64,000 nucleotides of DNA from Peptococcaceae bacterium UBA5755 (GTDB lineage: Bacteria; Bacillota; Dehalobacteriia; UBA4068; UBA5755): assembly GCA_002419005.1 (NCBI GenBank), contig DIFF01000012.1, positions 17,436 to 81,435 on the forward strand. The letters run 5' to 3'. The notes beneath the pieces were generated by a model. It searched no databases. It worked only from the letters and a program-made list of their open reading frames with translations, and was not told the DNA's origin. A program made the translations under genes and the position numbers. Positions 17,356-35,482 of this stretch are shown one piece after another. Position 1 is the first letter of the stretch. Every line of letters begins with the position of its first letter.

Positions 17356-17438
17356 CTCTTAATTATTTAATTATTATTCACATACCTGTAAAATAATATA
17401 CCAGCAGAAATAAGTCTTGATATTTTTAGGATAATTTG

Positions 17439-17504
17439 TTGATTTTTAAGCCTATCTGTGGTAAAATAGATTATGTCGTTATGCTTTGTAAAGTATAACG
17501 ACAT
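17439..17504 (+). promoter_or_regulatory. modA promoter (TTGATT-17-TGgTAAAAT) with a downstream 10-bp-arm palindromic operator
   Basis: -35 at 17439-17444 and -10 at 17462-17467. Palindrome atgtcgttat-N12-ataacgacat at 17473-17504, with a half-site resembling ModE-type TATAACGA. Confidence 0.45.
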
Positions 17505-17538
17505 AAAGACATAACGAAAAAGGAGATTAAAATCTAAA

Positions 17539-18333
17539 ATGAAGAAAAAATTTTATTTGTTGTTGCTTATTGTTACTATGATATGCCTGGTTTTTGCAGG
17601 CTGCTCTAATTCTACTAATACAGGAAGCACAACTTCTCAAAACGAACCTCCGGTAAATCTATTAGTTTATGCAGGCGCTGGATTGAAAATGCCCTTAGAG
17701 GAAATCAAAACCGCCTTCGAAGCGGAAAACAATGTCATCATAGAATACGTTTACGCTGGTTCCGCCCAACTGTTGTCTCAAATTGAAACATCCGGCAAGG
17801 GAGATGTTTTTATCGTAGGTTCCGAGAATACATACAATAAAGCAATAGAAAAGGATTTAGCCAACGAAAGCAAATTAGTAGCTCATCACACTCCGGCAAT
17901 CATGGTAGCCAAGGGGAACCCCAAAAATATTCAAACCCTGGAAGATCTGACCCAAGAAGGTATTAAAGTTGTCCTGGGCGACCCACAAGCAAATGCCATT
18001 GGTGCCACCGCTCAAAAATTGATCGAAAAAAATAATCTGCAAGATATAAATAACAACGTCGTTGCGCAAACCTCCACCATTAACGAGATTGTTACCGCTA
18101 TCACTGCCGGGAATGCCGATGCAGGAATAGTAACTACAGACTCTGCATACGGCAACAACGCGGTGGAGCTAATTGCCATCCCCGATGCTCAAAATATAGA
18201 TCAGCTGATCCCCATTGGTTCTCTAAAGATTTCTACCAATCCGGAAATAGTGGCTACTTTTGTTGATTTTGTGGCTTCAGAATCAGGTAAAGCTATATTT
18301 GAAAAATACGGGTTTGCTCCTGTAACAGAATAG
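17539..18333 (+). CDS. modA: molybdate/tungstate ABC transporter substrate-binding lipoprotein
   Basis: Lipobox FAGCS. ModA/TupA-type periplasmic binding fold (...VYAGSAQL...). Confidence 0.75.
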   Translation: MKKKFYLLLLIVTMICLVFAGCSNSTNTGSTTSQNEPPVNLLVYAGAGLKMPLEEIKTAFEAENNVIIEYVYAGSAQLLSQIETSGKGDVFIVGSENTYNKAIEKDLANESKLVAHHTPAIMVAKGNPKNIQTLEDLTQEGIKVVLGDPQANAIGATAQKLIEKNNLQDINNNVVAQTSTINEIVTAITAGNADAGIVTTDSAYGNNAVELIAIPDAQNIDQLIPIGSLKISTNPEIVATFVDFVASESGKAIFEKYGFAPVTE

Positions 18334-18351
18334 TGAGATAAAATAACCAAG

Positions 18352-19137
18352 ATGCCAAATAAGCTTTTCGCCGGTTTGTTAAAATCAGTGCTTATTTTTG
18401 CTGCAGTATTTTTGTTAACTCCGCTGGCGGTCCTGATCATCAAAGGCCTAAACTATATCATTCCCAGCCTGATGTCGCCGGAAGTAATTTTTTCCCTCAA
18501 ACTCAGCCTAGAAACATCCACTATTTCCACGGCAATCTGTATGCTAATAGCAATACCAGCCAGTTATGCCTTGTACAAATATACTTCCAGATATAGGCAC
18601 TTAATCGAAAATATTTTATATACCCCAATGTCTCTTCCTCATCTGGTTTCCGGGGTAGCTTTGTTGTTGCTTTTTGGCAGAAACGGCATCGGAGATTTTT
18701 TGTATAATCATTTTCATATCGATTTTGTTTTTACGGCCTATGGGATAACATTGGCCCAACTATTCGTCCATCTTCCCTTTGCCATCAAAATAACCCTGAC
18801 CTCCTTAGAAGAGATCAACCAAAAAATGATCTTTACCGCTAGGACTCTGGGGTGTAATGAATTTCAATCTTTTATCCATATCATTCTGCCTTCTCTTAGA
18901 AGAAGCATTCTCTCAAATATTATCATGACTTGGTCGAGAGCACTGGGTGAGTTTGGCGCGGTAATGATGCTGGCGGGTACTACCAGGATGAAAACCGAGG
19001 TATTACCCACCAGTATCTTTCTTAATATGGCAACCGGAGACCTTGATCTGGCAATCGGAACAGCCGCTATCCTGATCATTTTGTCATTGGCTTGTATGCT
19101 TATATTCAATTCTTTACTTTCCCCAAAAAGAAGGTGA
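18352..19137 (+). CDS. modB: molybdate ABC transporter permease
   Basis: Multi-TM permease with the EAA-like loop (...SRALGEFGAVMMLAG...). Confidence 0.75.
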   Translation: MPNKLFAGLLKSVLIFAAVFLLTPLAVLIIKGLNYIIPSLMSPEVIFSLKLSLETSTISTAICMLIAIPASYALYKYTSRYRHLIENILYTPMSLPHLVSGVALLLLFGRNGIGDFLYNHFHIDFVFTAYGITLAQLFVHLPFAIKITLTSLEEINQKMIFTARTLGCNEFQSFIHIILPSLRRSILSNIIMTWSRALGEFGAVMMLAGTTRMKTEVLPTSIFLNMATGDLDLAIGTAAILIILSLACMLIFNSLLSPKRR

Positions 19138-19141
19138 CTGT

Positions 19142-19837
19142 ATGCTGGATATTACAGATTTTTATGTCAAAGTCGAAGAGTTTTTTCTTAAAGAAATCAA
19201 TCTTAAACTTAATCAAGGAGAATATTTTGTTGTCTGGGGCGAAAGTGGTGCCGGCAAAACGGTATTTTTGGAGAGTATTGTCGGCAGATACAAATTACAA
19301 ACCGGTGCAATCAGCTTGTCGGGCAGACGCATCAGCGATTTACCACCCGAAAAACGTCACATTGGTTTTGTTTATCAAGATTACGAATTGTTTCCGCATC
19401 TTAAAGTCAAAGATAATATCATGTTTCCTCTGCGTCTGCAAAAGGTACCCAAAAAAGATTATCAAAAAAAATGCAATGAAATGATGGAAATATTGAACAT
19501 CAGTCATCTAAAAGGTCGCTATCCCAATGATCTAAGCGGAGGAGAAAAACAAAGAGTAGCCATCGGGCGGGCCTTGATCATGTCTCCCAAGCTTTTACTT
19601 TTAGATGAGCCTTTCAGCTCGCTTGACTATACCAACAAACAGAATATCAAACAGCTATTGAAAGATATTCATCATAAATTTAAGCCGACAGTGATTCATG
19701 TCACGCATGATATTAAAGAAGCCTTTTATTTTGCCGACCGAATTGGTATAATTAGAAATAACACATTGGATAAGATCATTAATAACGGTGAACTGAAAAA
19801 AATGGTAAAAGAGGAGGACTTCTATGAATATATATGA
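19142..19837 (+). CDS. modC: ABC transporter ATP-binding protein (molybdate-type)
   Basis: Walker A GESGAGKT. Signature LSGGEKQRVAIGRAL. Walker B LLLDEPFSSLD. Confidence 0.8.
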   Translation: MLDITDFYVKVEEFFLKEINLKLNQGEYFVVWGESGAGKTVFLESIVGRYKLQTGAISLSGRRISDLPPEKRHIGFVYQDYELFPHLKVKDNIMFPLRLQKVPKKDYQKKCNEMMEILNISHLKGRYPNDLSGGEKQRVAIGRALIMSPKLLLLDEPFSSLDYTNKQNIKQLLKDIHHKFKPTVIHVTHDIKEAFYFADRIGIIRNNTLDKIINNGELKKMVKEEDFYEYI

Positions 19838-20555
19838 TAAATTAAAGGATCACTTAAAAAATATCATCAGCGAATATGGTCTATCCGCAGAGGAAATAAT
19901 TATTAGCTCCAAATCACTTTCTCCCGAGGAAGCTATAGGTGTAACCCAAAGAAAGGATTTTCCTATACTGACTGGGCAGGAAATTATGCTGGAAGCGTAT
20001 TTTAAAGATGCGGTAGGGCAGGCTTTCACCGATTCGCCAGCAGCTTTTAACGGCAGGCTCTCAGATATACTAGAGCTGGATATAGAAAACGACCCTTATG
20101 CCAAAGGTTTATTTATTGCCTCCCTAAATGCAATAATGAAATACCTTGGTCTAGCAGAAGGAACTATTCATTGTAAAAATCAAGAAGTAGAGAAGTGTGC
20201 TCAGAAATTTATTACCTTTATAAAAGAGCATTACGGTAATCCCAAAATTGCGTTGATAGGCTTTCAGCCGGCTCTTCTTGACAACCTTTCCAAGGTCTAC
20301 AAATTAAGAGTCCTGGATCTGAATCCAGATAATATTGGTAAAGAAAAATATGGCGTTCTCGTAGAAAACGGCATCACCGCTTATCAGGATGCAATTAACT
20401 GGGCAGATCTTATACTCTGCACGGGTAGTACCATCTGTAACGGTTCCGTAGTCAATTTTATTGATATCGGCAAACCGGTAATCTTTTATGGTACAACGAT
20501 AGCCGGAGCAGCAAAAATGTTGGGTCTAAAAAGAGCCTGTTTTTGTTCCGGATAA
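19824..20555 (+). CDS. DUF364/DUF4213-type Rossmann-like protein (putative metal-chelation protein linked to Mo/W uptake)
   Basis: Overlaps the modC stop. Overall similarity to the DUF364 family that co-occurs with tungstate/molybdate transporters. Confidence 0.5.
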   Translation: MNIYDKLKDHLKNIISEYGLSAEEIIISSKSLSPEEAIGVTQRKDFPILTGQEIMLEAYFKDAVGQAFTDSPAAFNGRLSDILELDIENDPYAKGLFIASLNAIMKYLGLAEGTIHCKNQEVEKCAQKFITFIKEHYGNPKIALIGFQPALLDNLSKVYKLRVLDLNPDNIGKEKYGVLVENGITAYQDAINWADLILCTGSTICNGSVVNFIDIGKPVIFYGTTIAGAAKMLGLKRACFCSG

Positions 20556-20589
20556 TCTGGTTTAAATCCCTTTATTCCCACCAACTTTT

Positions 20590-20666
20590 GGAGGCATAGC
20601 TCAGTTGGTTAGAGTGCCTGCTTCACATGCAGGAGGTCGCTGGTTCGAGCCCAGCTGTCTCCACCA
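20590..20666 (+). tRNA. tRNA-Val (anticodon CAC)
   Basis: Hand-folded cloverleaf: acceptor GGAGGCA/TGTCTCC, D-arm, anticodon loop tTCACAt, T-loop TTCGAGC, encoded CCA. Confidence 0.85.
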
Positions 20667-20674
20667 AATCAATC

Positions 20675-20714
20675 AAATCCGAACCTTGTACCAATCGGTG
20701 AAGGATTCGGATTT
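20675..20714 (+). terminator. hairpin downstream of tRNA-Val (terminator-like)
   Basis: aatccgaacctt...aaggattcggatt, a roughly 12-bp stem with one bulge. Confidence 0.4.
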
Positions 20715-20740
20715 GTGCTTTATCTGAAAGATATATAACA

Positions 20741-20779
20741 AACAATGAGGACGGCACATTTCATGCCGTCCTCATTGTT
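20741..20779. repeat. perfect 16-bp-stem inverted repeat
   Basis: aacaatgaggacggca-cattt ca-tgccgtcctcattgtt. Confidence 0.6.
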
Positions 20780-21039
20780 ATGTCTGTTGAATTTATTTTG
20801 TACCTGTGCTACTTTTATCCTTCTTTGCCATGCCAAGCCTTTCTCCATATTCGGTTGCCAAGGTACAATTTTTTCTGTATCAGCGGGCGTTTTTGCCGCT
20901 GTACCGTTGCTGCGTTCGTTTACGCTCCCGCGCTTCCCTCGATTGCTGAAAGATGTCCAAAAACAACCACTTTTTGTGGTTGGCAGTAAAACTCTATTTT
21001 TTGTTCAAGCTATCGGCTGATAAAAAATACATAGAAACA

Positions 21040-21516
21040 CTAAAAGTTAAATTTATTCTCCCAATTGAAGTTCCCGGATTGTTCTAAACTTGTAGGCCAA
21101 TGATTGCACCATTCCGGCACACCGGGAGTCTCAACTCTGTCAAGGCTCGGTGTATATGGCTTTATATCAAGTATTGGCATACCGTCGTTAGCGTCAATAT
21201 AGTAAATTTGAATAATGCCTTTTTTATAGTCTATATGAACGACCTGCACCGCAGTTAAAGCGATAGGATTTGGGCGAACAGGGGACCTTGTTGCAAAGAT
21301 ACCCATTATAGCCGGAACCTTTTTATACGGTTGCAGTGATTCAAGGGTATTCCTCGCTTCTTTATTATCAAAGTCTCTAAACCACCAAATAACATTAAGG
21401 TGACTAAATCCACCTAATGCTTGCAAAGCTGGAATATACTTCGGTTCAACTTCAATAAACATTCCTTCCTCGTTAACGCTGATTTTACCAATGGGGGTTA
21501 CATAAAAATTTTGCAT
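21040..21516 (-). CDS. TsaA/TrmO-family (YaeB, UPF0066) tRNA methyltransferase-like protein
   Basis: Motif TRSPVRPNPIALT typical of TsaA/TrmO. Start at ATG (MQNF) after GGAGGA. Confidence 0.6.
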   Translation of the reverse strand: MQNFYVTPIGKISVNEEGMFIEVEPKYIPALQALGGFSHLNVIWWFRDFDNKEARNTLESLQPYKKVPAIMGIFATRSPVRPNPIALTAVQVVHIDYKKGIIQIYYIDANDGMPILDIKPYTPSLDRVETPGVPEWCNHWPTSLEQSGNFNWENKFNF

Positions 21517-21543
21517 ATTGCATTCCTCCACATGATTTTTATT

Positions 21544-22446
21544 TTATCTGTAAATCCAGTGTAGACCCTGACACCATGTGAGAGTCAATATCAAAAAAGC
21601 GTTTTGCAAAAAATCTGCAAAACGCTTTTTTGATATTTTTTCCAGTGGGATTTGTATTTCAGTTAAGTATTTATCAGGACTTTCTTCATTCCATGGCCCT
21701 CGGTGAACAATTTGCCTGCTTTGCCCGGTCATTTTATACTGATTGTGTTCCTGCAACCAATTTGCATAAGCAAGATATGCGCCTGCTATGTTCTCAAATT
21801 TCCCATATACCATTGTGCAAGCCATCATCGGTACAGGCTCCGTATTACGATATACAAAGCCATTCATATTTTCACCCATTTTGGCTACGGGCGCACATAT
21901 TTCAATATCAACATCTTTTTCTCTATAATCTGTATCGTGATATATGGTAAAGGTATTGCTTGAAACAGGAATATCATTTTCATCTGCAAAGGCCGACATT
22001 TCTTTCCATAATTGACCTTCGGCATAATAATCAGGAACAGTCCGTCTTAAAGAAAACACTTGATAACTGGGAATAGATTTGATTAAAACGTTATAGTTTA
22101 TCGCTATCTTTTCCTGTCGAATATCCTTTTTTGCCAGTTCGATTTTAGATAGTTTATCTTGTTCGGCCTTAATCGTATTCTCAATTTCCAGGCGTTTATT
22201 TTCAATCTGATTTGTAATAAATTCATCATCCCAATTATTAAGGGAAACTGCAATTTCAGAAACATTAAAGCCTAAATCCCGCAAGAATATAATCTTGTTC
22301 AAAGTGGAAATCTGCTCCGTGGAATACAGTCTATAATTTGTAAATTTATCAATTTCCGCAGGTTTTAACAAGCCTGTTTCATTATAATATCTTAACATTC
22401 GGATTGATACTTGTGTTAATTTGGAAAACTCACCTATTTTGAACAT
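21544..22446 (-). CDS. MerR-family transcriptional regulator with GyrI-like effector-binding domain (BmrR-type)
   Basis: N-terminal MerR HTH (MFKIGEFSKLTQVSIRMLRYYNETGLL), a coiled-coil linker, and a C-terminal GyrI-like region. The ORF reads through a perfect bidirectional terminator hairpin at its 3' end. Confidence 0.7.
   Translation of the reverse strand: MFKIGEFSKLTQVSIRMLRYYNETGLLKPAEIDKFTNYRLYSTEQISTLNKIIFLRDLGFNVSEIAVSLNNWDDEFITNQIENKRLEIENTIKAEQDKLSKIELAKKDIRQEKIAINYNVLIKSIPSYQVFSLRRTVPDYYAEGQLWKEMSAFADENDIPVSSNTFTIYHDTDYREKDVDIEICAPVAKMGENMNGFVYRNTEPVPMMACTMVYGKFENIAGAYLAYANWLQEHNQYKMTGQSRQIVHRGPWNEESPDKYLTEIQIPLEKISKKRFADFLQNAFLILTLTWCQGLHWIYR
21593..21631. terminator. perfect bidirectional terminator hairpin (inside the 3' end of the MerR ORF)
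   Basis: aaaaaagcgttttgca-aaaaatc-tgcaaaacgctttttt. Confidence 0.6.
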
Positions 22447-22469
22447 TCGCACCACCTCTATATTAAAAT

Positions 22470-22498
22470 ATTATATCGTGAGTATTCTGAAACTGCAA
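22470..22498 (-). promoter_or_regulatory. candidate sigma-A promoter of the MerR gene (TTGCAG-17-TATAAT)
   Basis: Minus strand: -35 at 22498-22493 and -10 at 22475-22470. Confidence 0.4.
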
Positions 22499-22596
22499 AT
22501 AAAATACATTACCCATCTATTAGCTGTCTATCTTATTTTCATTCGCATTTGGTAGTTGCTTCCTTATGCACCATTCTCCGATGAATGACTGGCTGA

Positions 22597-23419
22597 AACA
22601 TCGGCACATATATTGATCGCGCATTATTTGCTAAGTTAGACCGCCTCTCCCGTAACCGTTATAATTCCGCTTTAAACAAGGCGGCGCTTCGTAAAAACAG
22701 CGTTAAGGTTGTATCAGCAAAAGAAAACATATCTGATGGGCCGGATGGTATCATTCTTGAATCCATGCTGGAGGGCTACGCTGAATACTATTTCGCGCAA
22801 AACAAGCCCTATACCATGGGCAGCTTTAACGCCCTGCTGAAAAACAGAAAATACATTAGGGAATACAAATATCAGGCTGTGATTATTCCCAACGGCGTAC
22901 CAGCCATCCTGTCCGAAGAACTGTTTTATCGTGTGCAGGAGCACATGGAGAAAAACAAGCGTGCTCCCGCGAGGACAAAGGCTGAGGAAGAATATTTGCT
23001 GACCACCAAGATTTTTTGCGGGAAATGCGGCAGCAGCTTGCCGAAACGGAAAAAGGGCTTGATAATCTGCTCAACGCCATCCAGCAGGGACTTTTGACCT
23101 CATCTACAAAAAAGCGGCTGAACGATTTGGAAGCGCAAAAAGAGGATTTAGAAATCAGCATTCTACAAGCTGAAATGCAAAAACCGAAATATACCAAAGA
23201 GCAGATGGTATTCTGGATAAGTCAATTCAAATACGGCGATATGGACAGTGTGGACTATCAGAAAAAATTATAGATACGTTCGTCAACTCCATCTATCTTT
23301 TTGATGACAAAATCGTGTTTACTTACAACTACAAAGATGGTACGAAAATTATCTCCCTCAAGGATATTGAGGGAGATAATTTGATGAGTGAGTCTTCACC
23401 AAATTGTTCAATACTCTGA
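22597..23419 (+). pseudogene. degraded serine recombinase (N-terminally truncated, at least two frameshifts)
   Basis: Frame opens directly after a stop with ...IDRALFAKLDRLSRN... (the catalytic-domain DRLSR motif), then a zinc-ribbon IFCGKCG and C-terminal coiled-coil. Translation is split over three frames (22597-23097, 23016-23273, about 23270-23419). No start codon or catalytic-Ser region. Confidence 0.6.
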
Positions 23420-23726
23420 TTATTATAATTAGCAGTATTATCCAAATTATAGTATTATTAGATCAGCAGCTAATTTTAAACAGTTTAAACCAACTATATT
23501 TGGTAATGTATTAACCGTTGTTGCTGTGTGTATAATAGGCATGTTTGGATTTTGTCAAATATTTAAAAGTATCAAACGTGCAAAAGTCAAAAAGGGTTTT
23601 TTACACTAGTTACCATTCTAACATGGATTATTATCATCTATCTGTCGTGGATTATGAGTGATGACTTTTTTACTACAATATATTTTATTGGAGCTGGGGG
23701 AGATTGATTATAAATTGGCCAAACAA

Positions 23727-23755
23727 TTGACGATATTGGTTCCCTGGGTTATGAT
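23727..23755 (+). promoter_or_regulatory. candidate sigma-A promoter of the esterase operon (TTGACG-17-TATGAT)
   Basis: -35 at 23727-23732 and -10 at 23750-23755. Confidence 0.45.
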
Positions 23756-23787
23756 GAAGATGTTTCATGAAAAGGTGGATCAATCTT

Positions 23788-24720
23788 ATGAATCTTCTGG
23801 AAAAAACAGCTTCAAAAGCAATATCCCACTTATATATTAATGTAAAAAAACATTATAAGATCTATCGTAAAATGTTAAATGCCGTAACCCTATATATTAA
23901 ACCACTTTACAACGCACTGGATCGTAAGATAATGGTTAATGATAGGGAAATTCCGGTACGCGTTTTTCGACCTAAAAAGAATAGCGTTTCAAAAGTCTTG
24001 ATTTTTTTTCATGGTGGAGGCTGGGTTACGGGCAATATCGATTCTTACACAAAAATATGCACTCATATGGCAGAACAAACGAAGCATACTGTTGTGTCGG
24101 TAGATTATCGATTAGCTCCGGAAAATCCCTTTCCGGCGGGTCTTGAAGATTGCTATTATGCAACCAGGGAATTTTTTTTAAATCGAGATCTCTCGAATTG
24201 TAATAGGGAGGATATAACATTAATCGGCGATAGTGCCGGGGCCACTTTAGTTGCGGCGGTTTCGCAGATGGCAAGGGATAATGGTGAATTTCTGCCTTGC
24301 AAGCAGATTCTATTATACCCTGCTACATATGGTGACTATAGTGAAAATTCTCCATTTCCTTCCGTACAAGAAAATGGATATGATTATATTCTTACCTCAA
24401 AACGAATGCGGGAGTACATGGAGCTGTATGTTAGAGACAAAAAGGATAGATATAGTCCTTATGTAGCTCCTATATTGGCACCGGATCTCTCCAACCAGCC
24501 AAAAACATTAATCATCACAGCTGAATATGATTTGCTGCGTGATGAAGGTGAGGCGTATGGAATCAAGCTTAAGGAATTTCATAATGATACCAGGATATAT
24601 CAAATGAAGGATGCCCTCCATGGTTTTCTTACCTTGCCGTGGAAATCGGAAGCTGTGGTAAAATGTTATAAAATAATCAATGATTTTCTAGGGTATAAAG
24701 AGAATTCGGGTGAGTGTTGA
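23788..24720 (+). CDS. alpha/beta-hydrolase fold-3 (HSL-like) esterase/lipase
   Basis: Oxyanion-hole motif FFHGGGW and nucleophile elbow GDSAG. Catalytic D/H candidates in the C-terminal part. AAGGTGG RBS lies 9 nt before the ATG. Confidence 0.75.
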   Translation: MNLLEKTASKAISHLYINVKKHYKIYRKMLNAVTLYIKPLYNALDRKIMVNDREIPVRVFRPKKNSVSKVLIFFHGGGWVTGNIDSYTKICTHMAEQTKHTVVSVDYRLAPENPFPAGLEDCYYATREFFLNRDLSNCNREDITLIGDSAGATLVAAVSQMARDNGEFLPCKQILLYPATYGDYSENSPFPSVQENGYDYILTSKRMREYMELYVRDKKDRYSPYVAPILAPDLSNQPKTLIITAEYDLLRDEGEAYGIKLKEFHNDTRIYQMKDALHGFLTLPWKSEAVVKCYKIINDFLGYKENSGEC

Positions 24721-24722
24721 AT

Positions 24723-26000
24723 ATGAAACACAAAAAGAAAATTGAGTGGAACAGACTTGATAATGCTTCGAAAATTTTTCCGGCAACTTACAGTGAAAAA
24801 GATACCAAGGTATTCCGAATTGCCTGTGAGTTGTATGAAAAAATAGAACCGGAAATTTTACAGGAGGCATTAAGTATAACGATTGAAGATTTTCCCTTCT
24901 ATAAGTCTGTATTACGGAGGGGGATGTTTTGGTATTATTTTGAGTCAAGTGATATTCAGCCGATAGTCCAGGTAGAGTCGAATTCAGTATGTGCTCCTAT
25001 ATATGTAGGACATAGATATAACTTGCTATTTAGGGTATTTTATTATAATAAAAGGATAAATTTTGAAGTATTCCATGCTCTTTCTGACGGTACAGGCGCA
25101 GTTTGGTTCATGCAGTCTCTTGTATATAACTATTTAAATCTGAAGCATAAAGGGACTTTTGCAAATACAGTTCTCCCGAACGATATTTCTTCTATAAATG
25201 GGAAAATGGATGATAGTTTTAAAAAGTATTTTGCCAGCAGCAATATTTTTGTTCGAAGAGTAAAGTACAAGGGAAAACAAAGAAGCCCCAAAGCATATCG
25301 TATTGGTGGAACCAAATTGGAAGAAAACAGAACAAATCTGGTAGAAGGTTCAATGTCTACTAAGGCTATTTTGAATTATGTCAATGAATACAATACGACC
25401 GTGACGATATTTATCGCATCCTTATTAATTTATTCGATCTATAAAGAAATGCCAATCCGTAAAAAAAAATATCCTGTTGTTTTGTCCATTCCAATAAATT
25501 TGCGTCCTTTTTTTAAGTCAGAAACAGGAAGAAACTTCTTTACCACCATGAATGTAGGTTACCCTTTTGATAAAGGTGCACATGATTTGGCAGATGTAAT
25601 TCGCGTGGTAAGTGAGAGCTTTAAAAGAAATTTGACAGAGGAACAGCTGGAAGATCAATTAAATCAATTTATGTTTTGGGAACGAAACCCTTTTACAAGA
25701 GTGAGTCCTTTGCAAATAAAGGATTTTGTCCTTCGTATCATCTCTAAAGTAAATGACAGAAAAATAACTTCAAACATATCCAACCTGGGACAAATCTCCA
25801 TGCCTTTAGAATTTAGTTCATATATTCGGCAGTTCAGCTTCTGTACGGGAGCCAAAAGACCTCAGATAAGTATGTGTTCTTATAATGATGTGATGGTTAT
25901 AAGTTTTACCTCGCCATTTCGAGAGACCAGTATACAAAGAATCTTTTTTCAGATGCTTTCAGAACATGGAATTGAAATTGAGATTTCATCCAATTTATAA
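24723..26000 (+). CDS. condensation / WS-DGAT-like acyltransferase (HxxxDG active-site motif, first His replaced by Phe)
   Basis: FHALSDGTG in the position of HHxxxDG. About 425 aa. Start 2 nt after the esterase stop, indicating an operon. Confidence 0.5.
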   Translation: MKHKKKIEWNRLDNASKIFPATYSEKDTKVFRIACELYEKIEPEILQEALSITIEDFPFYKSVLRRGMFWYYFESSDIQPIVQVESNSVCAPIYVGHRYNLLFRVFYYNKRINFEVFHALSDGTGAVWFMQSLVYNYLNLKHKGTFANTVLPNDISSINGKMDDSFKKYFASSNIFVRRVKYKGKQRSPKAYRIGGTKLEENRTNLVEGSMSTKAILNYVNEYNTTVTIFIASLLIYSIYKEMPIRKKKYPVVLSIPINLRPFFKSETGRNFFTTMNVGYPFDKGAHDLADVIRVVSESFKRNLTEEQLEDQLNQFMFWERNPFTRVSPLQIKDFVLRIISKVNDRKITSNISNLGQISMPLEFSSYIRQFSFCTGAKRPQISMCSYNDVMVISFTSPFRETSIQRIFFQMLSEHGIEIEISSNL

Positions 26001-26017
26001 CGTAGAGGAAGAGACTA

Positions 26018-26686
26018 ATGCAATATTGTAATCGCTGTCATGTTAATATACGGAGTGAAAAAAACAAGTGTGTTTTGTGCGGGGACACCCTATCAATTAT
26101 AGATTCCATCAATAAATATGAAGAAATATTCCCAGAAATACCCCCCATATATAATAGCCATTTGGCAATCCAAATCATGCTTTTTATTTCCTTTGCAGCT
26201 ATGGTGATAAGTTTCGGTATACGTATGATGCTTCCGACAAGCATTAATTGGCCCATTTTTGTCGTATTTGGGGTTCTTAGTATGTGGCTGAGTTTAATTT
26301 TTATTGTGCGAAAAAAGAACAATATACCTAGGACTATAATTTTTCAGGTTACCATTGCATCGTTGCTTGCTGTTTTTTGGGATTGGCAGACAGGTTGGAG
26401 GGGCTGGTCTTTGGATTATCTGATTCCGATTTTATATGTGGCAGCTGTAATAGTAATGTATATAACAGCCAGGATCACGAAGCTCAGTATTAGGGAGTAT
26501 ATTACATATGCCTTTATAGATTGTCTGTTCGGCACCATTCCCGTCTTGTTTATCTTATTTAAATGGGTCAACACCCCTTATCCTTCCATAATATGTGTGG
26601 TCATCAGTATTATCTTTTTATCAGCAATATTCATATTTCAAGGAGAGAATATCAAAATGGAATTAAACAAAAGGATGCATATATAG
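26018..26686 (+). CDS. zinc-ribbon domain protein fused to a roughly 6-TM membrane domain
   Basis: N-terminal CNRCH...CVLCG (CxxC-N13-CxxC) followed by six hydrophobic helices. Confidence 0.55.
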   Translation: MQYCNRCHVNIRSEKNKCVLCGDTLSIIDSINKYEEIFPEIPPIYNSHLAIQIMLFISFAAMVISFGIRMMLPTSINWPIFVVFGVLSMWLSLIFIVRKKNNIPRTIIFQVTIASLLAVFWDWQTGWRGWSLDYLIPILYVAAVIVMYITARITKLSIREYITYAFIDCLFGTIPVLFILFKWVNTPYPSIICVVISIIFLSAIFIFQGENIKMELNKRMHI

Positions 26687-26750
26687 TAATGTTTTTTGTT
26701 GGATATTTGTGATTTGCTCCTATTGATAAAAATAAAGAACGCAGTCTTGA

Positions 26751-26788
26751 AAGCCTTGGAAATGAAGTGTTTCCCAGGCTTTTTTTAT
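26751..26788 (+). terminator. rho-independent terminator of the three-gene operon
   Basis: aagccttgg-loop-ccaggctt followed by TTTTTT. Confidence 0.5.
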
Positions 26789-26900
26789 ATATCAGATTCC
26801 TTCTAGGTTAAACCATTTATAACAAAAAATGAGAATTATAACAAATTAGATTTAATATAATTTTAGTAAAAATTTTTTGTTTTTAGATGGAGCTGAAACT

Positions 26901-28163
26901 ATGATAAAAAAATTATCTATTTTTATAATGAGAAAAAAAACCATTGCTTTCGTGGTAGTTTGCTTTTTAATGTGTATCGGGCTGCTCGCCTTGTTTATGA
27001 ACATATTTTCCAAGAGTGTTATAACTTCACTGCCAAACAACTCAGAATATGTGATTCTGGCGGCAAACGAGCAGGGAATGCATTGTATTCAACACGATTA
27101 TGCCAGTTTTTTGATTCTTCCTCCGGGCAACAACCTGAAGGTTCAGGTATTTTACAATGATGGAAAAACAGCCAAGTTAATTTCTTCTGGCATTAAAGTT
27201 AGTTATCAAATCATAAACAATACTACTTCATCTGATAAAATTAACTTCTGGCAGTACGCCAAAGATTACGGATATGACGTTGCACCCAACATAGGCATCA
27301 CCGGTAACGGCTTGTCGGGTGAAATGAAAATTTCCGATGACGGAAATTATTATGAGGCCACAGCCATACCTGTGACGCCCTATAATGATGAAAGCACAGA
27401 ACTAAATCCCTATCAGCTTGCTTATATTCAAGTTTATGATGCTACCACTGGTGAAATACTTGCTACAATCGACGATGTTGTAGTACCGGTTTCCGATGAA
27501 ATGGACTGCGGAGTATGTCACGGTACAGTCGATACGGATTTAAATATTTTAAAAACCCATGACCAACTGTCAAAAACCAAATTGGCGGAAGAGCTGGCGC
27601 TTGGCAAACGATACAAATGCTCTGATTGCCATCAGGACAATGCTCTTGATATGCCTGGAAACTCTGGTGTTTTACCGATGTCAAAAGCGATGCACGGTTT
27701 TCACGCAGACAAAATGGGGCAAAGCAATATCAAACCCGAATGTTATAGCTGCCATCCCGGTCCGGTAAGCCAATGCTATCGGGGCGCCATGTCAAGCAAG
27801 GTCAGCTGCACTGATTCAGAATGCCATGGCGACATGCAAAACATTGCCCAAACGCAAGCACAGGGCAGGCAGGCATGGCTACAGGAACCAGACTGTGGCG
27901 TTTGTCACGGAGCAAAATATGGGGTCAATCCAGGCCTCCTTTATCAAGATTCCTATCTGATCAATAATGCTAGCTCTGAAATGAATGGCATTATTCAATG
28001 TGAATCCTGTCATAACAGTTCACATGCCGAATGGAAATCAACCAATCCGGCGGATAATCTTCTGCCCATAAGGTTATTAGGATATGCAAGTTTTATCAAC
28101 AAATGTACAGTCTGCCATGAAGGCAAGGGGGTAATACACAGTGAATTAATGGATGAACAATAG
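26901..28163 (+). CDS. membrane-anchored multiheme c-type cytochrome (six CxxCH plus one CX4CH motif)
   Basis: N-terminal TM anchor. Heme-binding motifs CGVCH, CSDCH, CYSCH, CTDSECH (CX4CH), CGVCH, CESCH, CTVCH. Confidence 0.65.
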   Translation: MIKKLSIFIMRKKTIAFVVVCFLMCIGLLALFMNIFSKSVITSLPNNSEYVILAANEQGMHCIQHDYASFLILPPGNNLKVQVFYNDGKTAKLISSGIKVSYQIINNTTSSDKINFWQYAKDYGYDVAPNIGITGNGLSGEMKISDDGNYYEATAIPVTPYNDESTELNPYQLAYIQVYDATTGEILATIDDVVVPVSDEMDCGVCHGTVDTDLNILKTHDQLSKTKLAEELALGKRYKCSDCHQDNALDMPGNSGVLPMSKAMHGFHADKMGQSNIKPECYSCHPGPVSQCYRGAMSSKVSCTDSECHGDMQNIAQTQAQGRQAWLQEPDCGVCHGAKYGVNPGLLYQDSYLINNASSEMNGIIQCESCHNSSHAEWKSTNPADNLLPIRLLGYASFINKCTVCHEGKGVIHSELMDEQ

Positions 28164-28180
28164 AGGGGTGTGGTAACGGA

Positions 28181-29839
28181 ATGGGAAACCAAATTTTGCT
28201 ATTTGCGGCTATTCTTAGTGGTGCTTGTTCCATTTTATCCTTTATGCCCACATCTTTCAAACCAATTAAAAAGACAATACCTATATTGTGGTGCTTATCT
28301 GCTATTATGATCATTTTTGCCGTCGTGCTGATGATTGCTCTCCAAATTTTATGTAAATTTCAATATCAGTATGTTTATGACCATATAAGCAAAGATATGG
28401 GCCTAATTTATAAAGTTTCAGCTCTTTGGTCAGGGCAGGAAGGTTCATTTTTACTATGGGCGCTCATTATGGGCATAATGAGTTTTTTTGTGCTACGAAT
28501 GAAAGGAGACAACACATATAAGGCATTTGGCATTTATTCTGCAATTAGTTCTTGCGTATATATAATGTGCTTTAATGTTCATCCCTTTAATAGAATGAAC
28601 ATTATTCCCCTTGATGGTCTTGGGATAACGGAAGCGCTGAAAAATCCATGGATGGTTATTCATCCGCCCCTGGTATTTATTGCTTACAGTGCAATGGCAG
28701 TCCTGTTCTCCCTTTCTGCAATAATTTCTAAAAAAAATTTTATTGGTTATAACAACCGGATTGCCACATGGCTTCGTATAAGCTGGATATTCCTGGGGTT
28801 AGGAATCCTATCTGGCAGCATTTGGGCCTATCGTGCCTTGGGATGGGGTGGATACTGGGCATGGGATCCAATTGAAAACGCAGCTCTTGTACCATGGCTT
28901 ATAATTTGTGGATTTCTGCACTACCAAGCATGCAGCCAAAACCTAATATGCGTTTTACCGTTTTCCATTTCTTGTTTTGGCGTATTTTTAGCCCGTAGTG
29001 GAATATTAAAAGATCAGTCGGCCCATGCCTATTCAGAAGGGAATGTAATTGTTACGGGGATGGTTATTTGTTTTATGCTTGGAACTTTACTGTTTTATAT
29101 TTTAAAAATTTGTAAACGAAAAAGAAAAGAACATACAGGCAGGCCCTCTTTAAGTAATATGAAAAAATTAATTTTCTATTTTATGAGCGGATATGCCGTG
29201 CTGATTTTCATAGGAACCATAGCTCCAATAATACTGAATATGGAAACACCAATTACATATTATACTGCGATTAGTGCGGTTTTTGCCTTGGCATACAGCA
29301 TCCTACTGCTGTTACGTGATATTGAGTGGTTAAAAAAACGAAGTGTATTAATGGTTTTCATCAGTACAATACTTGTTATCGGTATTATGGCCCTTACCGG
29401 TTCCAATAAATTCATATGGCTTATGCTCATATGGATCTGTTTGATGCCACTTTCCTTATGGTTGGCTTCCGGTTTCCCCAAAAGCTGGAAATTCTACTTA
29501 CCTCATTTGGGAGTTTTACTCCTGATTGTTGGGGCCATCGGTTCGTCGTCACTATGCGGTAAAGCTGTGGCTGTTACAACACTGGATAGCAGTCAAGTCA
29601 TTGTTGCAGGAATCGAGATCCCTTTATCAGAGCTTTCAAAAAAGGATATTTTAATTAAGTCTCTCCCTACGCAGGATTTAATTATCCAATGTTCCCAAAT
29701 TTCCACCTTACCTCAGGGCGGTTTTCTGATACCTTATGAAATAAAACCCTTGATTATTTTGTTTTGGATCGGCGGGATTGCCGTTATTTCCACCTCTTTG
29801 AGTTTCATCATCTGGGATCGGTTTACGATAAGACAATAA
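28181..29839 (+). CDS. CcmF/NrfE-family cytochrome c heme lyase-like polytopic membrane protein
   Basis: SALWSGQEGSFLLW (CcmF N-terminal motif). NPW..IHPPLVFIAYS. WWD domain GWGGYWAWDPIENAALVPWL. About 13 TM helices. No other ccm genes lie adjacent. Confidence 0.7.
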   Translation: MGNQILLFAAILSGACSILSFMPTSFKPIKKTIPILWCLSAIMIIFAVVLMIALQILCKFQYQYVYDHISKDMGLIYKVSALWSGQEGSFLLWALIMGIMSFFVLRMKGDNTYKAFGIYSAISSCVYIMCFNVHPFNRMNIIPLDGLGITEALKNPWMVIHPPLVFIAYSAMAVLFSLSAIISKKNFIGYNNRIATWLRISWIFLGLGILSGSIWAYRALGWGGYWAWDPIENAALVPWLIICGFLHYQACSQNLICVLPFSISCFGVFLARSGILKDQSAHAYSEGNVIVTGMVICFMLGTLLFYILKICKRKRKEHTGRPSLSNMKKLIFYFMSGYAVLIFIGTIAPIILNMETPITYYTAISAVFALAYSILLLLRDIEWLKKRSVLMVFISTILVIGIMALTGSNKFIWLMLIWICLMPLSLWLASGFPKSWKFYLPHLGVLLLIVGAIGSSSLCGKAVAVTTLDSSQVIVAGIEIPLSELSKKDILIKSLPTQDLIIQCSQISTLPQGGFLIPYEIKPLIILFWIGGIAVISTSLSFIIWDRFTIRQ

Positions 29840-29905
29840 AATTAAGTATTGTTAATTAAGTATTTATAGAATATAATTATATCCGCGTCATTGACAAACA
29901 TGTTA

Positions 29906-29934
29906 TTGACAAAGTAGGGGAATGGTGTTAAAAT
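29906..29934 (+). promoter_or_regulatory. sigma-A promoter of the second DEAD-box helicase (TTGACA-17-TGtTAAAAT)
   Basis: -35 at 29906-29911 and extended -10 at 29926-29934. Confidence 0.55.
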
Positions 29935-29971
29935 AAAAAATTGTAACTGCAAAAATAATGGTTAGACATTA

Positions 29972-29998
29972 AACGAGGAGTACATTCCTCGTTTTTTA
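29972..29998 (+). promoter_or_regulatory. leader hairpin plus U-tract (attenuator-like) in the 5' UTR of the CshA-like helicase
   Basis: aacgagga-gtacat-tcctcgtt followed by TTTTTTATTTATT. Lies between the promoter and the RBS. Confidence 0.5.
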
Positions 29999-30020
29999 TT
30001 TATTAGAATTGAGGAAACAA

Positions 30021-31775
30021 ATGACAAAAATGACAAAAATTTTATTCTCCCAACTTAACCTAACACCTAAAATCGAAGAAGCTATTGACAGAATGGGCTT
30101 CGATTTTGCAACCCCTATCCAGTCGGAGGCAATACCACTGATTAGGTCAGGTGCAGACGTTATTGCCCGTTCACAGACCGGTACCGGCAAGACTATTGCG
30201 TTTGCGATACCTGCGATCGAGAAAGTAGATACCAGCGAGGGGAAAACCACCATTCAGGTGCTTATACTTTGCCCCACAAGAGAGCTGGTACAGCAGGCAA
30301 CAGAGGAAATCAGGAAGCTTGCCAGATTTAGGGCTGATATCCATCCTGTGGAGATATATGGTGGTGCCGCCATCGACAAGCAGTGCATCCGCCTCCGTAG
30401 CGCCAACATAGTTGTTGGGACGCCCGGGCGGGTGATGGATCATATGCGTCGCAAGAATATCAGACTCTCAAACTTGAAGATGATAGTTTTGGATGAGGCC
30501 GACGAGATGCTGAGCATGGGTTTTAAGGAGGATATCGAGACTATCCTGACGGACACTCCGGCAGACCGGCAAACAGTGCTTTTTTCCGCTACCATGTCGC
30601 GGGCTATACTAACGCTGACAAACGAGTTCCAAAAAGACCCGCAACTGATCGATATTAATAAGAGCCAGGCCACCATAACAGATATCGAGCAGAGCTACAT
30701 CGAGGTTCCCCGCGGCAGAAAAAAAGACGCGCTAGGCATGCTGCTGCAACATCATCAACCAAACCGGGCTATAATTTTCTGTAATACTAAAAAAATGGTA
30801 GACGAGCTGACCGAGTTTCTCAGTTGCTTCGATTTTAAAACGGAGAGCATCCACAGCGATATAAAGCAGGCTCAAAGAACTGCAGTCATGCAAGGCTTTA
30901 AGCAGGGGAAAACAGCGTTACTGATTGCATCCGATATTGCCGCTCGCGGTATAGATGTGAATGATGTTGACTTTGTCATCAACTATGACATCCCGACAAG
31001 TACGGAATACTATATACATCGTATTGGCAGAACGGGACGAGCTGGTAAATCGGGGCGCTCTGTCACTCTTTGCAGCGGCAGGCGCGAAGTCAACACCATG
31101 CGCGGTATTGCTTCTGAGATAAAAGCGCAAATAACCCCAATGTCGCTGTCCTCTTTAAGCGATATCCAAAAAGCTAACGGTAGCAAGGCAATAAGTGCTA
31201 TGGAAAAAACTTTACAAGTTGAGATTCAGACATCATTTTTAGAAATGGTAGACCAATTGGCAGAAAAAGGTTATTCTCTAAAAAACATTGCGGCAGCGGC
31301 AATGCAGCTGCAATTTGCTAAGGTTGCTCTGCCGGCCATAGTCACCCCTATTGAACCGTGGGAGTTGGAAGCAATAGCCCCGGTAAAAAAAAGAGCCGAC
31401 AATAGTAAGGTCAGCTCTGCTTCGTATGAGGCTGTGCTTATCGATATAGGCCGCACTCACCATGTCGCCGCCAAACACATCGTTGGCGCGATTACAGAGC
31501 GAACAGACTTGGTTGGCAGCGACATCGGCAAGATAGATATTTTGCCCGGGCAAACTATTGTCAATATTCCCACCGGATACAGTGAGGAATTTTTAGAGGC
31601 AATGGCAGGCTGCAAGATCTGTGGCAGGCCGGTCAATACGGTAAAGCTGGCCAATACTTCAAAAAATAGAAAGAGTGCGCTAGGGTCAATCATTAACTCA
31701 CATGATGGCAAAAAAAACAATCGTACTCAGGGCGCCTCATTAAATAAAAAAGAATCGTATCGGTCATGCGGGTAA
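30021..31775 (+). CDS. cshA: DEAD-box ATP-dependent RNA helicase with DbpA-type C-terminal RNA-binding extension (CshA-like)
   Basis: Motifs SQTGTGKT, VLDEADEMLSMGF, FSAT, HRIGRTGRAG, plus an extra roughly 200-aa C-terminal region. Confidence 0.8.
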   Translation: MTKMTKILFSQLNLTPKIEEAIDRMGFDFATPIQSEAIPLIRSGADVIARSQTGTGKTIAFAIPAIEKVDTSEGKTTIQVLILCPTRELVQQATEEIRKLARFRADIHPVEIYGGAAIDKQCIRLRSANIVVGTPGRVMDHMRRKNIRLSNLKMIVLDEADEMLSMGFKEDIETILTDTPADRQTVLFSATMSRAILTLTNEFQKDPQLIDINKSQATITDIEQSYIEVPRGRKKDALGMLLQHHQPNRAIIFCNTKKMVDELTEFLSCFDFKTESIHSDIKQAQRTAVMQGFKQGKTALLIASDIAARGIDVNDVDFVINYDIPTSTEYYIHRIGRTGRAGKSGRSVTLCSGRREVNTMRGIASEIKAQITPMSLSSLSDIQKANGSKAISAMEKTLQVEIQTSFLEMVDQLAEKGYSLKNIAAAAMQLQFAKVALPAIVTPIEPWELEAIAPVKKRADNSKVSSASYEAVLIDIGRTHHVAAKHIVGAITERTDLVGSDIGKIDILPGQTIVNIPTGYSEEFLEAMAGCKICGRPVNTVKLANTSKNRKSALGSIINSHDGKKNNRTQGASLNKKESYRSCG

Positions 31776-31878
31776 GGGGATAGATCAATACTACCACCTA
31801 TGCTATCATGCAGCAGCTTTATTATCTTCCTTTTATCCGGACGATATACGGACAAGGGAAAAAGAAGTTTTAATAAAA

Positions 31879-32505
31879 TTATACCTTGAATAATGTTATC
31901 AGTTCACGCGTAGCGGCAGTAATATCTTTTTGTGCCACTATTGCTGATATAACCGCAAATCCGTCTATACCTGAACCTTTAAAATTACATATTGTATTTT
32001 TGCTTATCCCGCCGATGACAACAATGGGAATATCCACTGCTTTGCGTATTTTTTTTAGCTCATCCATAGTAACAATTTCTGTGTCTTTTTTGGTTGTAGT
32101 GGAATACATTGCTCCAACCCCCAAATAATCAGCGCCGTCATTTTGCGCTTTGACCGCTTCCTTAAGGTTAGATGCTGAAACACCAAGGATCTTATCCTTG
32201 CCGATTAGCTTTCTTACGACCGCCGCTGGTAGATCATTTTGACCAATGTGAACACCGGCAGCGTCGATCGCCATAGCTACATCAACACGGTCATTGATAA
32301 TCAGCGGAACATTGTATCTGTCTGTAATATCTTTTATGCGAAGTGCAAGCTGATAAAATTTAAGAGATGAACAGCACTTTTCTCTTAACTGAACAATTGT
32401 ACATCCGCCTAGAATAGCAAGCTCAACCGATTCTTCTATGGTATCGGTTGACATTAGTTTTCTGTCCGTACAAAGATAGAGGGTATAATCAATTTTATTC
32501 TTCAT
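31879..32505 (-). CDS. thiE: thiamine-phosphate synthase
   Basis: LYLCTDRKL...TIVQLREK and C-terminal GGI..N motifs. Start at MKNKIDY overlaps the thiM end. Confidence 0.8.
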
Positions 32506-33313
32506 TAAGTTTCGCTCTTTCTGCAATAATATCGCCGTTAAGATAACCAAGCGCATCTATAATTGCAACATGAAAATTGCCTATACCAAGACTGCCTGCT
32601 TTTTCAAATGCCATTTCACCTGCTATACCCATCAAGGCAACACCACCAACGGCTGCAGAAAAATAGTCTTTGCCAATACCTGCAAAGGCTCCAACCAGTG
32701 CTGTTGTCATGCAGCCTGTTCCTGTTACCTTGGAAAGCATTTTGTGGCCGTTAAAGATTTTAACAACCCTTTTACCATCCGAAACAACATCAATGGCACC
32801 GGTTAGGGCAACCACACAGTTAAGTTTATTTGCAACTGTTATTGCAACGGTTGCACTGTCATTTTTTTCATCAGCGGTAGAGGAATCCACTCCTTTTGTA
32901 GAAGCTCCCATCCCTGCTAAAAACGAAATCTCGGACAAATTACCCCGCAGTATGGTAATTTTAATCTGTTCTATTATTTCTTTTGTTGTGTCGTTTCTGA
33001 GTTTGGATGCGCCAGCTCCAACCGGATCAAAAACAACAGGAATACCGAGAGCATTTGCTTTTTTACCCGACTCAATCATTGAAGCGATAGTACGCTTATT
33101 GAGTGTTCCAATGTTTATGACAAGAGCCGCAGAAATTGCGGTAATATCTGCTGCCTCAGCAATATCATCAGCCATAATAGGGGAGGCGCCAATAGCAAGC
33201 AGGGCATTGGCAACATCGTTTACTGTAACATAGTTAGTTATATTGTGAACAAGAGGAACTTTATTTTTAAGTTCTTGTATTAACTTTGAAATATCTTTTG
33301 TTATTGTGTTTAT
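32495..33313 (-). CDS. thiM: hydroxyethylthiazole kinase (N-terminus has no canonical start codon in frame)
   Basis: The ThiM-like N-terminus [36 protein letters not shown] is in frame upstream of the ORF-track ATG. The frame opens right after a stop with ATA AAC..., preceded by AAAGGGG at 9 nt. The first in-frame ATG is internal, at 33175. Confidence 0.6.
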
Positions 33314-33330
33314 TTAAATCAGCCCCTTTA

Positions 33331-34644: not shown

Positions 34645-34645
34645 T

Positions 34646-35446
34646 TTATATGATTCCTTTCGTTTTATATAGTTCATAAAAGTGGTTTGTCGGGCCATGT
34701 CCCTTACCAATGTTAAGCGAATATTTTATTGCCAGGGTCACATATTTTTTTGCTTCTTCCACCGCTTTGGCTAATTCCATTCCGTTTGCAAGATTTGCGG
34801 TAATCGCAGAGGAAAGAGTACAGCCAGTACCATGCGTGTTTTTTGTATTGATTCGTTCATTTGAAAAAGAATCAACTTTTTTACCGTCAAACAAAATGTC
34901 AACGGCATCGCCGCTTAAATGGCCGCCTTTTACTAAGACATTTTTGGCTCCCAGCTGGTAAATTATTTTAGCAGCTGCTTTCATATCACTTACCGTTTTA
35001 ATATCCATTCCCGTGATTGTTTCGGCTTCCGGTATATTGGGAGTAATTAAAAAACTAAACGGTAGAATTTCCTTTTTTAGAGTATCCAAAGCATCCAACT
35101 GCATCAATAAAGAGCCGTCCTTTGCAATAATTACAGGATCAAACACGGTAATCTTCGGCTTATATTCTCTCAATTTCTCTGCTACCGCTTTCATAGTTTC
35201 AATACCGGATAACATGCCAATCTTAACCGCATCAACTTCAATATCCTCAAAAACCGCGTCAATCTGGTCTTTAATAACTTTTTGCGTTACATTTTGAATT
35301 GAAATGACTCTGGATGTGTTTTCCGCAACAACCGCAACAATAACACTCATACCAAAACAGCCGAGGGCGGAAAAGGTTTTTATATCAGCCTGTATTCCCG
35401 CACCGCCGCTGCAATCGGAACCGGCAATAGACAAACAGTTTTTCAT
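34646..35446 (-). CDS. thiD: hydroxymethylpyrimidine/phosphomethylpyrimidine kinase
   Basis: [19 protein letters not shown]-terminal motif. AAAGGAG RBS. Confidence 0.8.
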
Positions 35447-35482
35447 ATAAATACTCCTTTAACATAACAAATTTAACATAAC

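Follow-up and report, generated by a model that had tools for sequence, protein, structure and literature searches.

What do three closely packed genes of Peptococcaceae bacterium UBA5755 do together, and did they arrive with the dead recombinase that stands beside them? The genes lie in a stretch of 64,000 nucleotides of contig DIFF01000012.1 (assembly GCA_002419005.1, positions 17,436 to 81,435), hereafter the window, whose numbering is used throughout, and encode in this order an esterase, an acyltransferase and a membrane protein of the DUF6320 family. A first-pass annotation, made from the sequence alone, had read them as a self-contained operon and as a possible horizontally acquired cargo of the recombinase. 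We found that the trio is widely conserved, that its members are fused in nature and that it is independent of the recombinase. We propose, with about an even chance of being right, that it is a native conserved operon for membrane-docked acyl transfer with an opposing esterase cycle.

The three genes form a self-contained operon (Table 1). The tight packing described in the first-pass annotation was verified, in that the TGA of the esterase gene ends at 24720 and the next ATG follows at 24723, leaving a gap of 2 nt, and a 17-nt spacer with a ribosome-binding site, AGAGGAAGAG, separates the acyltransferase gene from the DUF6320 gene. An alternative in-frame ATG at 23767 would give an esterase of 317 aa, but ATG 23788 is the most likely start, because it is preceded by AAGGTGG (23772–23778), because the public gene calls have 310 aa, and because only with this start is there room after the −10 box for the promoter geometry to work. 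For the acyltransferase, translation from a GTG at 24714 would instead yield 428 aa. The proposed promoter, TTGACG-17-TATGAT, is present and is unchanged in a sister strain, but such sites are no commoner in the window than in shuffled sequences (20 observed versus 18.8±5.7), and it is therefore regarded as a candidate only. The proposed terminator was supported by RNA folding: its hairpin has a folding energy of −16.3 kcal/mol (z = −3.15), equally stable structures were obtained in 1 of 200 shuffles, and a U-run follows. It contains one mismatch and was therefore missed by a simple hairpin scan. Rfam gave no riboswitch or leader ahead of the cassette, whether in the window or in the 13 related loci scanned, and none of the trio proteins matched a PADLOC-DB defence model at E ≤ 0.01. 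Between the window and the sister strain, each gene has four changed codons, too few to judge selection.

The conservation of the trio was assessed across 104 loci (21 from GTDB species representatives, 80 from metagenomes and a few from elsewhere), which fell into 89 groups at 90 % identity. The acyltransferases of the 89 dereplicated loci share 31–69 % identity with the window protein. Among 85 assessable groups, 78 have a DUF6320 gene immediately after the acyltransferase gene and 4 have the two fused (82/85 in total), and the median gap between the two genes in the dereplicated loci is 0 nt. An Abhydrolase_3 esterase gene was found upstream in 57 and downstream in 4 of 76 assessable groups (61/76). 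One apparent DUF6320 match of the local hidden Markov model, in locus L080, is a Na/Pi cotransporter and was taken out of these counts. The first-pass annotation had allowed that the three genes might not be co-conserved elsewhere; the trio is in fact widely co-conserved. The carriers include Peptococcaceae, Clostridiaceae, Tissierella, Alkalibaculum, Oscillospiraceae, Anaerocolumna, Dehalobacter and Acetivibrio cellulolyticus, as well as one high-GC contig. The closest named relatives are metagenome-assembled genomes of Peptococcaceae (62–63 % identity), and megaplasmids of the Bacillus cereus group carry the acyltransferase–DUF6320 pair alone (30 % identity). Clustering of the flanking open reading frames (ORFs) revealed no other conserved neighbour, only sporadic ones such as generic ABC ATPases, TraX in 6 loci, a PAE-like hydrolase in 5, and a diacylglycerol (DAG) kinase.

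In single-sequence searches, the 425-aa acyltransferase gave no Pfam (even at E ≤ 10), NCBIfam or PDB match, and profile searches against the PDB returned marginal matches only (E ≥ 0.0065). Its AlphaFold2 (AF2) model, based on 35 homologues (predicted local distance difference test score, pLDDT, 74.7; predicted template-modelling score 0.79), matched in Foldseek the condensation/epimerisation domains of non-ribosomal peptide synthetases (NRPS), TRI3, PapA5 (1q9j), wax ester synthase/diacylglycerol acyltransferase (WS/DGAT; 6chj) and TRI101 with a probability of 1.0 and E-values of 1e-12 to 1e-10. Within the CoA-dependent acyltransferase superfamily, over 200 PDB chains matched at E ≤ 1e-3. 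Structure prediction, which the first-pass annotation had allowed might fail to give an acyltransferase fold, thus bore out its description of a condensation/WS-DGAT-like enzyme: the protein belongs by fold to the condensation/chloramphenicol acetyltransferase (CAT) superfamily, although no Pfam or NCBIfam profile recognizes it. The catalytic HxxxDG motif is present as FHALSDG, as had been read, and its H118 and D122 are invariant in 35 close and 108 diverse relatives, the latter sharing 30–46 % identity with the window protein; HxxxDG was found in 145 of 150 cluster representatives.

Relatives of the acyltransferase connect it to named families. Among the 108 diverse relatives, weak Pfam matches were found to PapA_C (62), AATase (43, at E < 0.01), Condensation (9), BAHD Transferase (6) and WS_DGAT_C (1), the AATase and PapA_C counts being scored at the weak level and the best AATase E-value being 2e-14. 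Some relatives rise above a Pfam cut-off, for example P0157 for AATase (33.4 bits versus 22), which a few relatives pass, and P0177 for PapA_C (33.5 versus 30). The window protein itself matches neither AATase (PF07247) nor PapA_C (PF16911) nor the WS/DGAT models (PF03007, PF06974), and judged by these profiles the family is a neighbour of AATase rather than a member of it. The middle protein thus represents, within the CoA-dependent acyltransferase superfamily, an unnamed family with AATase and PapA as its closest neighbours. Its size is considerable: when 1.84 billion cluster representatives (clusters at 50 % identity) were searched with a profile, 3,715 clusters matched at E ≤ 1e-3, and 1,156 did so at E ≤ 1e-30.

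The same searches bear on whether the enzyme is a stand-alone condensation enzyme of the NRPS or polyketide synthase (PKS) type, forming an amide or ester with a carrier-bound substrate and served by the esterase as an editing or release hydrolase. NRPS condensation (C) domains gave the best Foldseek E-values, FHALSDG resembles their HHxxxDG motif, annotations of the Joint Genome Institute name some family members 'NRPS condensation-like', and the 9 weak Condensation matches (PF00668) point the same way. We nevertheless consider this very unlikely, as no adenylation, carrier-protein or PKS gene is conserved beside the cassette in more than 100 loci and the sole PP-binding gene, in L027, lies 4.4 kb off in another cluster. 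The partners are instead a conserved membrane protein and an esterase.

The first gene encodes a canonical hormone-sensitive lipase (HSL) family enzyme, in agreement with the fold-3 esterase/lipase of the first-pass annotation. The protein matches PF07859 over profile positions 1–209 of 210 (E 6e-63, 213 bits), and both the HGGGW oxyanion motif and the GDSAG nucleophile elbow were read in its translation. The closest solved structures, AFEST (1jji, 2e-48) and EST2, are both carboxylesterases. The esterase stays under the cut-off of every NCBIfam equivalog, including LipP1 (NF058653; 267.3 bits versus 350) and the chloramphenicol hydrolase model (158 bits versus 500). It exceeds the Say1_Mug180 cut-off (26.1 bits versus 21), a match that reflects family overlap only. 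Inspection revealed no signal peptide or transmembrane (TM) segment. In five loci (L063, L067, L069, L070 and L073), all without Abhydrolase_3, the gene directly after DUF6320 encodes a PAE-family (PF03283) serine hydrolase, a cytoplasmic pectin-acetylesterase/Notum-like protein of 396 aa (at about 6940–8130 in L063). This hydrolase looks like a non-orthologous replacement of the esterase, which argues that an ester hydrolase truly belongs to the system, even if not in every locus.

An HSL-type esterase next to an enzyme with the WS/DGAT fold raises the possibility of a storage-lipid module, in which a WS/DGAT-like enzyme synthesizes triacylglycerols or wax esters, DUF6320 nucleates or anchors the product and the esterase acts as the mobilizing lipase. 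Besides the 6chj fold match and the one relative matching WS_DGAT_C, this would fit the weak match of the esterase part of P0157 to the LipY triacylglycerol lipase model and a DAG-kinase-family gene directly after the cassette in Anaerotruncus. The acyltransferase shares with WS/DGAT (AtfA) enzymes the fold, the HxxxD motif and probably a membrane-associated acyl-CoA:alcohol acyltransfer. However, no member of the family reaches the WS/DGAT thresholds, and PapA_C and AATase matches are far commoner than the single WS_DGAT_C match among 108 relatives. WS/DGAT enzymes have no obligate membrane partner or co-operonic esterase, the nearest solved esterases act on short- and medium-chain esters and are not true lipases, and the DAG-kinase link was found at one locus only. 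Neutral-lipid storage is, to our knowledge, no known trait of these anaerobes. We therefore regard a storage-lipid function as unlikely.

The third protein matches PF19845 over the full profile (positions 1–186 of 186; E 3e-57, 194 bits versus a gathering threshold of 29.9). The zinc ribbon and six TM helices of the first-pass annotation were both found, but its spacer of 13 residues was not: the ribbon, at residues 4–21, reads CxxC-N10-CxxC. In the AF2 model (pLDDT 69), the helices span residues 47–71, 78–99, 103–125, 130–154, 158–180 and 188–220. Counted by eye, 15 lysines and arginines lie in the N-terminus, even loops and C-terminus and 2 in the odd loops, which predicts an N-in/C-in topology with the ribbon and the C-terminal tail in the cytoplasm and the WDWxTGWxGW loop outside. 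The four cysteines, this loop and the C-terminal tail FQGENIKxELNKRMHI are conserved.

Natural fusions link the three proteins further. Abhydrolase_3::acyltransferase fusions were found in independent cluster representatives (P0131, P0230, P0157 and P0169), and acyltransferase::DUF6320 fusions in P0152, P0177, P0192, P0211, P0168 and more; uninterrupted fused acyltransferase::DUF6320 ORFs were also found in DNA, in L065, L083, L091, L105 and L107. In these, the acyltransferase joins the N-terminus of DUF6320, on the predicted cytoplasmic side, which is consistent with the use of a cytoplasmic acyl donor. Of 87 unfused DUF6320 proteins, 86 have the complete CxxC…CxxC ribbon, whereas all 17 fused proteins lack it (Fisher p = 1e-18, uncorrected for phylogeny); 2 of the 17 retain a degenerate half. 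Since the ribbon is kept in unfused and lost in fused DUF6320, it is probably, on this comparative pattern, the docking site of the acyltransferase, dispensable once the two are covalently linked.

We propose the following mechanism for membrane-docked acyl transfer. The 425-aa enzyme would act through its HxxxD motif as a cytoplasmic, acyl-thioester-dependent (probably acyl-CoA-dependent) O-acyltransferase. It would dock on DUF6320, most likely via the cytosolic zinc ribbon, and docking would bring the active site to the cytoplasmic surface of the membrane, where DUF6320 would present a lipophilic, hydroxyl-bearing acceptor or remove the product; DUF6320 may accordingly be an anchor, a substrate presenter or an exporter. 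The cytoplasmic family IV esterase would hydrolyse the same class of ester, and the trio would run an acylation/deacylation cycle, for remodelling or proof-reading, on a membrane-resident or lipophilic compound. Acyl-ester remodelling or the detoxification of a lipophilic compound, both suggested in the first-pass annotation, is still the most plausible functional class.

Several points weigh against this mechanism. HxxxD enzymes also form amides, so N-acylation is possible. About 20 % of the assessable loci have no nearby esterase, and the acylation/deacylation cycle is therefore not obligatory. The correlation between the distance matrices obtained for the three proteins (r = 0.89, 0.77 and 0.75; Mantel p = 0.001) fits co-inheritance but would equally result from shared vertical descent. 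The window acyltransferase lies under every curated family threshold in Pfam and NCBIfam. For DUF6320, neither a transporter or enzyme fold nor an analogue among solved structures was recognized. A neighbouring DAG-kinase gene was recorded at the Anaerotruncus plasmid locus alone, and literature searches found nothing on any member of the trio.

A related reading, which we hold more tentatively and think rather doubtful, is that an AATase/PapA-like enzyme and DUF6320 make up a hitherto unrecognized two-component membrane acylation machine, in which the ribbon would recruit the enzyme and the six-TM domain would bind or translocate the lipid. Such a machine, which would occur widely among Firmicutes, gut Oscillospiraceae and the B. 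cereus megaplasmids among them, would make an undescribed acylated membrane lipid or an exported ester tuned by the cognate esterase.

The closest and best-documented analogue of the proposed cycle is found in yeast, where Atf2, of the AATase family, acetylates sterols, the Abhydrolase_3-like deacetylase Say1 reverses the reaction and the acetylated form is exported (PMC8857485). In each system, an HxxxD alcohol O-acyltransferase would be partnered by a deacylase of the HSL/AADAC-type alpha/beta-hydrolases, and both enzymes would have a lipophilic alcohol as their substrate at a membrane. The families also correspond: Atf2 belongs to AATase (PF07247), matched by 43 of the 108 relatives, and Say1 to Say1_Mug180 (PF10340), whose cut-off the esterase passes. 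Different from the yeast cycle, the trio is bacterial and operon-encoded, its DUF6320 protein has no yeast counterpart, its acyltransferase lies under the AATase threshold in the window, its esterase is a generic Abhydrolase_3 protein (213 bits), and sterols are unlikely substrates in these anaerobes.

A second analogue is provided by the mycobacterial PapA enzymes with their membrane transporters. PapA5 acts with MmpL7 for phthiocerol dimycocerosate, and PapA3 with Chp2 and MmpL10 for polyacyltrehalose. These systems combine a stand-alone condensation-fold HxxxD acyltransferase, lipid esterification at the cytoplasmic membrane and an integral membrane partner, as predicted for the trio, and in some cases an alpha/beta-hydrolase-fold enzyme is also involved. 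Moreover, PapA5 (1q9j) is a structural match of the window enzyme and PapA_C is the commonest weak Pfam match (62/108). However, only the fold is in common, at about 11 % sequence identity; no PKS, FadD or MmpL (resistance-nodulation-division family) gene lies near the trio, DUF6320 is a small six-TM protein unrelated to MmpL, and the trio occurs in Firmicutes rather than in mycolate bacteria.

Literature searches found no paper that mentions DUF6320 or the cassette, and NCBIfam has no model for the acyltransferase or for DUF6320, in line with the view in the first-pass annotation that this is not a described system. The classes of enzyme involved are well known, but no earlier description was found of the dedicated DUF6320 partner, of the operon architecture or of the contrast in ribbon content between fused and unfused forms. 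The trio brings an unnamed HxxxD family of about 3,700 clusters, DUF6320 and a generic esterase into one testable unit, with the prediction that the zinc ribbon of DUF6320 is the docking site of the acyltransferase. If Clostridia, Tissierellia and gut Oscillospiraceae indeed make a new acylated lipid or ester in this way, the trio would represent a new pathway of envelope or lipid modification, and DUF6320 would gain a function.

The flanks of the cassette are patchy and non-syntenic between genera, and it occurs on B. cereus megaplasmids and an Anaerotruncus plasmid. Such a distribution would suit a xenobiotic or antibiotic modification cassette that spreads horizontally, O-acylating a toxic lipophilic compound as CAT and TRI101 do, with the esterase acting on related esters. 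The folds resembling TRI101 and TRI3, the sub-threshold relation of the esterase to chloramphenicol hydrolase and the mildly low GC content agree with it. On the other hand, soluble drug-modifying enzymes do not usually have a dedicated, co-evolving and often fused membrane partner, the surroundings of the cassette show no conserved efflux gene or regulator of the resistance type, homologues are rare among plasmids (5 of 72,556 records) and phages (4 of 50,697 records), and the adjacent MerR/GyrI gene belongs to a separate island (see below). We consider a role in drug modification improbable.

Is the trio, then, the cargo of the adjacent recombinase? The recombinase is indeed dead, as had been noted: its relic is split over three frames, the Resolvase match starts at profile position 65 of 145, so that the catalytic Ser region is gone, and the Recombinase domain starts at position 33 of 102. 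The trio adjoins this relic, and its GC content of 36.0 % is somewhat lower than the 40.7 % of the window. The AT-richness pointed out in the first-pass annotation is thus real but mild, about 1.9 standard deviations under the mean and at the 5th percentile among 2.9-kb windows, and equally low values occur in other native-looking genes; the deviation in composition is thus weak.

Comparison with the sister strain argues strongly against the cargo reading. Its contigs L110–L112 match 23403–36695 at 98.6 % nucleotide identity, a region covering the 385 bp upstream of the esterase, the trio, the cytochrome and haem-lyase genes, a helicase gene and thiamine genes, and match 19694–20668 (DUF364 and the tRNA) at 93 %. 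In place of 20669–23402, the sister strain has 144 unrelated bases. This 2.7-kb segment, which also holds a small ORF, begins 2 nt past tRNA-Val and ends with the recombinase relic; two copies of a direct repeat that agree at 12/13 positions flank it (GTCTCCACCAAAT at 20655–20667 and GTCTTCACCAAAT at 23393–23405). These data indicate that the segment is a decayed tRNA-integrated island with MerR and TrmO cargo, and that the trio lies outside its boundaries. Furthermore, no recombinase was linked to the trio in other genomes among the neighbourhoods compared. That the trio is cargo of the recombinase is therefore hardly credible; the relic marks a separate tRNA-Val island and not the origin of the operon, which corrects the earlier misreading. 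The scarcity of homologues in plasmid and phage records also speaks against mobility. An ancient transfer of the trio is possible given its non-syntenic flanks, but nothing ties such a transfer to the recombinase.

Table 1. Features of the operon and of the adjacent island, in window coordinates
Feature	Position	Strand	Basis
Three same-strand ORFs	23767/23788–24720, 24723–26000, 26018–26686	+	ORF list
Candidate sigma-70-type promoter, TTGACG-17-TATGAT	23727..23755	+	10/12 positions match
Family IV (HSL-type, Abhydrolase_3) carboxylesterase, 310 aa	23788..24720	+	PF07859, motifs
HxxxD acyltransferase, condensation/CAT superfamily, 425 aa	24723..26000	+	AF2 fold, HxxxD
DUF6320 protein, zinc ribbon and six predicted TM helices, 222 aa	26018..26686	+	PF19845, AF2 model
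Intrinsic terminator, hairpin 26749–26783 and U-run	26749..26787	+	RNA folding
tRNA-Val(cac), left boundary of strain-specific island, outside operon	20590..20666	+	ARAGORN; Rfam 68 bits
Strain-specific island remnant, outside operon	20669..23402	.	absent in sister-strain L110, L111
TrmO-like gene in island	21040–21531	−	
MerR/GyrI-like regulator in island	21544–22455	−	
Serine-recombinase relic in island	~22597–23395	+	

Other observations were made around the island and the operon. A long hairpin/inverted repeat lies at 21568-21654, inside the 3' end of the MerR-family ORF, for which Rfam gave only sub-threshold miRNA-precursor noise. A second segment of the window (17410-19693), with genes for an ABC-transporter permease and ATPase, is missing from L110/L111 between collinear blocks. 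Directly past the terminator, 26877-29839 encodes a c-type multihaem cytochrome, with about six CxxCH and one CxxxxCH motifs by eye and a sub-threshold match to TIGR01904, and a CcmF/NrfE-like haem lyase (Cytochrom_C_asm, E 2.5e-27); the two genes appear to form a unit of their own that includes a dedicated maturation enzyme.

In Dehalobacter (L024, L025 and L026), the DNA past DUF6320, from about 10.3 kb onward, is completely different in each locus. One downstream region has an HTH_38-domain gene (possibly a transposase), BlaI/BlaR-like genes occupy another, and the remaining one carries an intact large serine recombinase alongside Fic/VbhA and methylase genes; the cassette seems to adjoin an integration hot spot there too. 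The phage records with acyltransferase homologues (29–37 % identity) are four unannotated 'Bacteriophage sp.' contigs from human faeces (GenBank MT835641, MT835472, MT836634 and MT835493), which may be prophage-adjacent or mis-binned bacterial DNA.

Among the sporadic neighbours, a TraX-family membrane protein (PF05857) adjoins or lies near the cassette in L037 (7069-7866), L019 (7007-7693), L010, L016, L017 and L091. On the Anaerotruncus colihominis plasmid NZ_CP094683 (L029), a DAGK_cat/YegS-type lipid kinase gene (6967-7866) starts 23 nt past DUF6320. In the high-GC loci L086 and L088, about 790 nt separate the acyltransferase and DUF6320 genes, and in L088 a GNAT-family acetyltransferase gene (4942-5694) lies between them. 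On the B. cereus plasmid CP046512 (L028), a 235-aa 'small multidrug resistance protein' (6248-6955) matches PF19845 (E 5e-13) as a divergent DUF6320, and its gene overlaps the stop of an 'alcohol acetyltransferase' gene whose product is 30 % identical to the window enzyme; the multidrug-resistance label is probably a mis-annotation.

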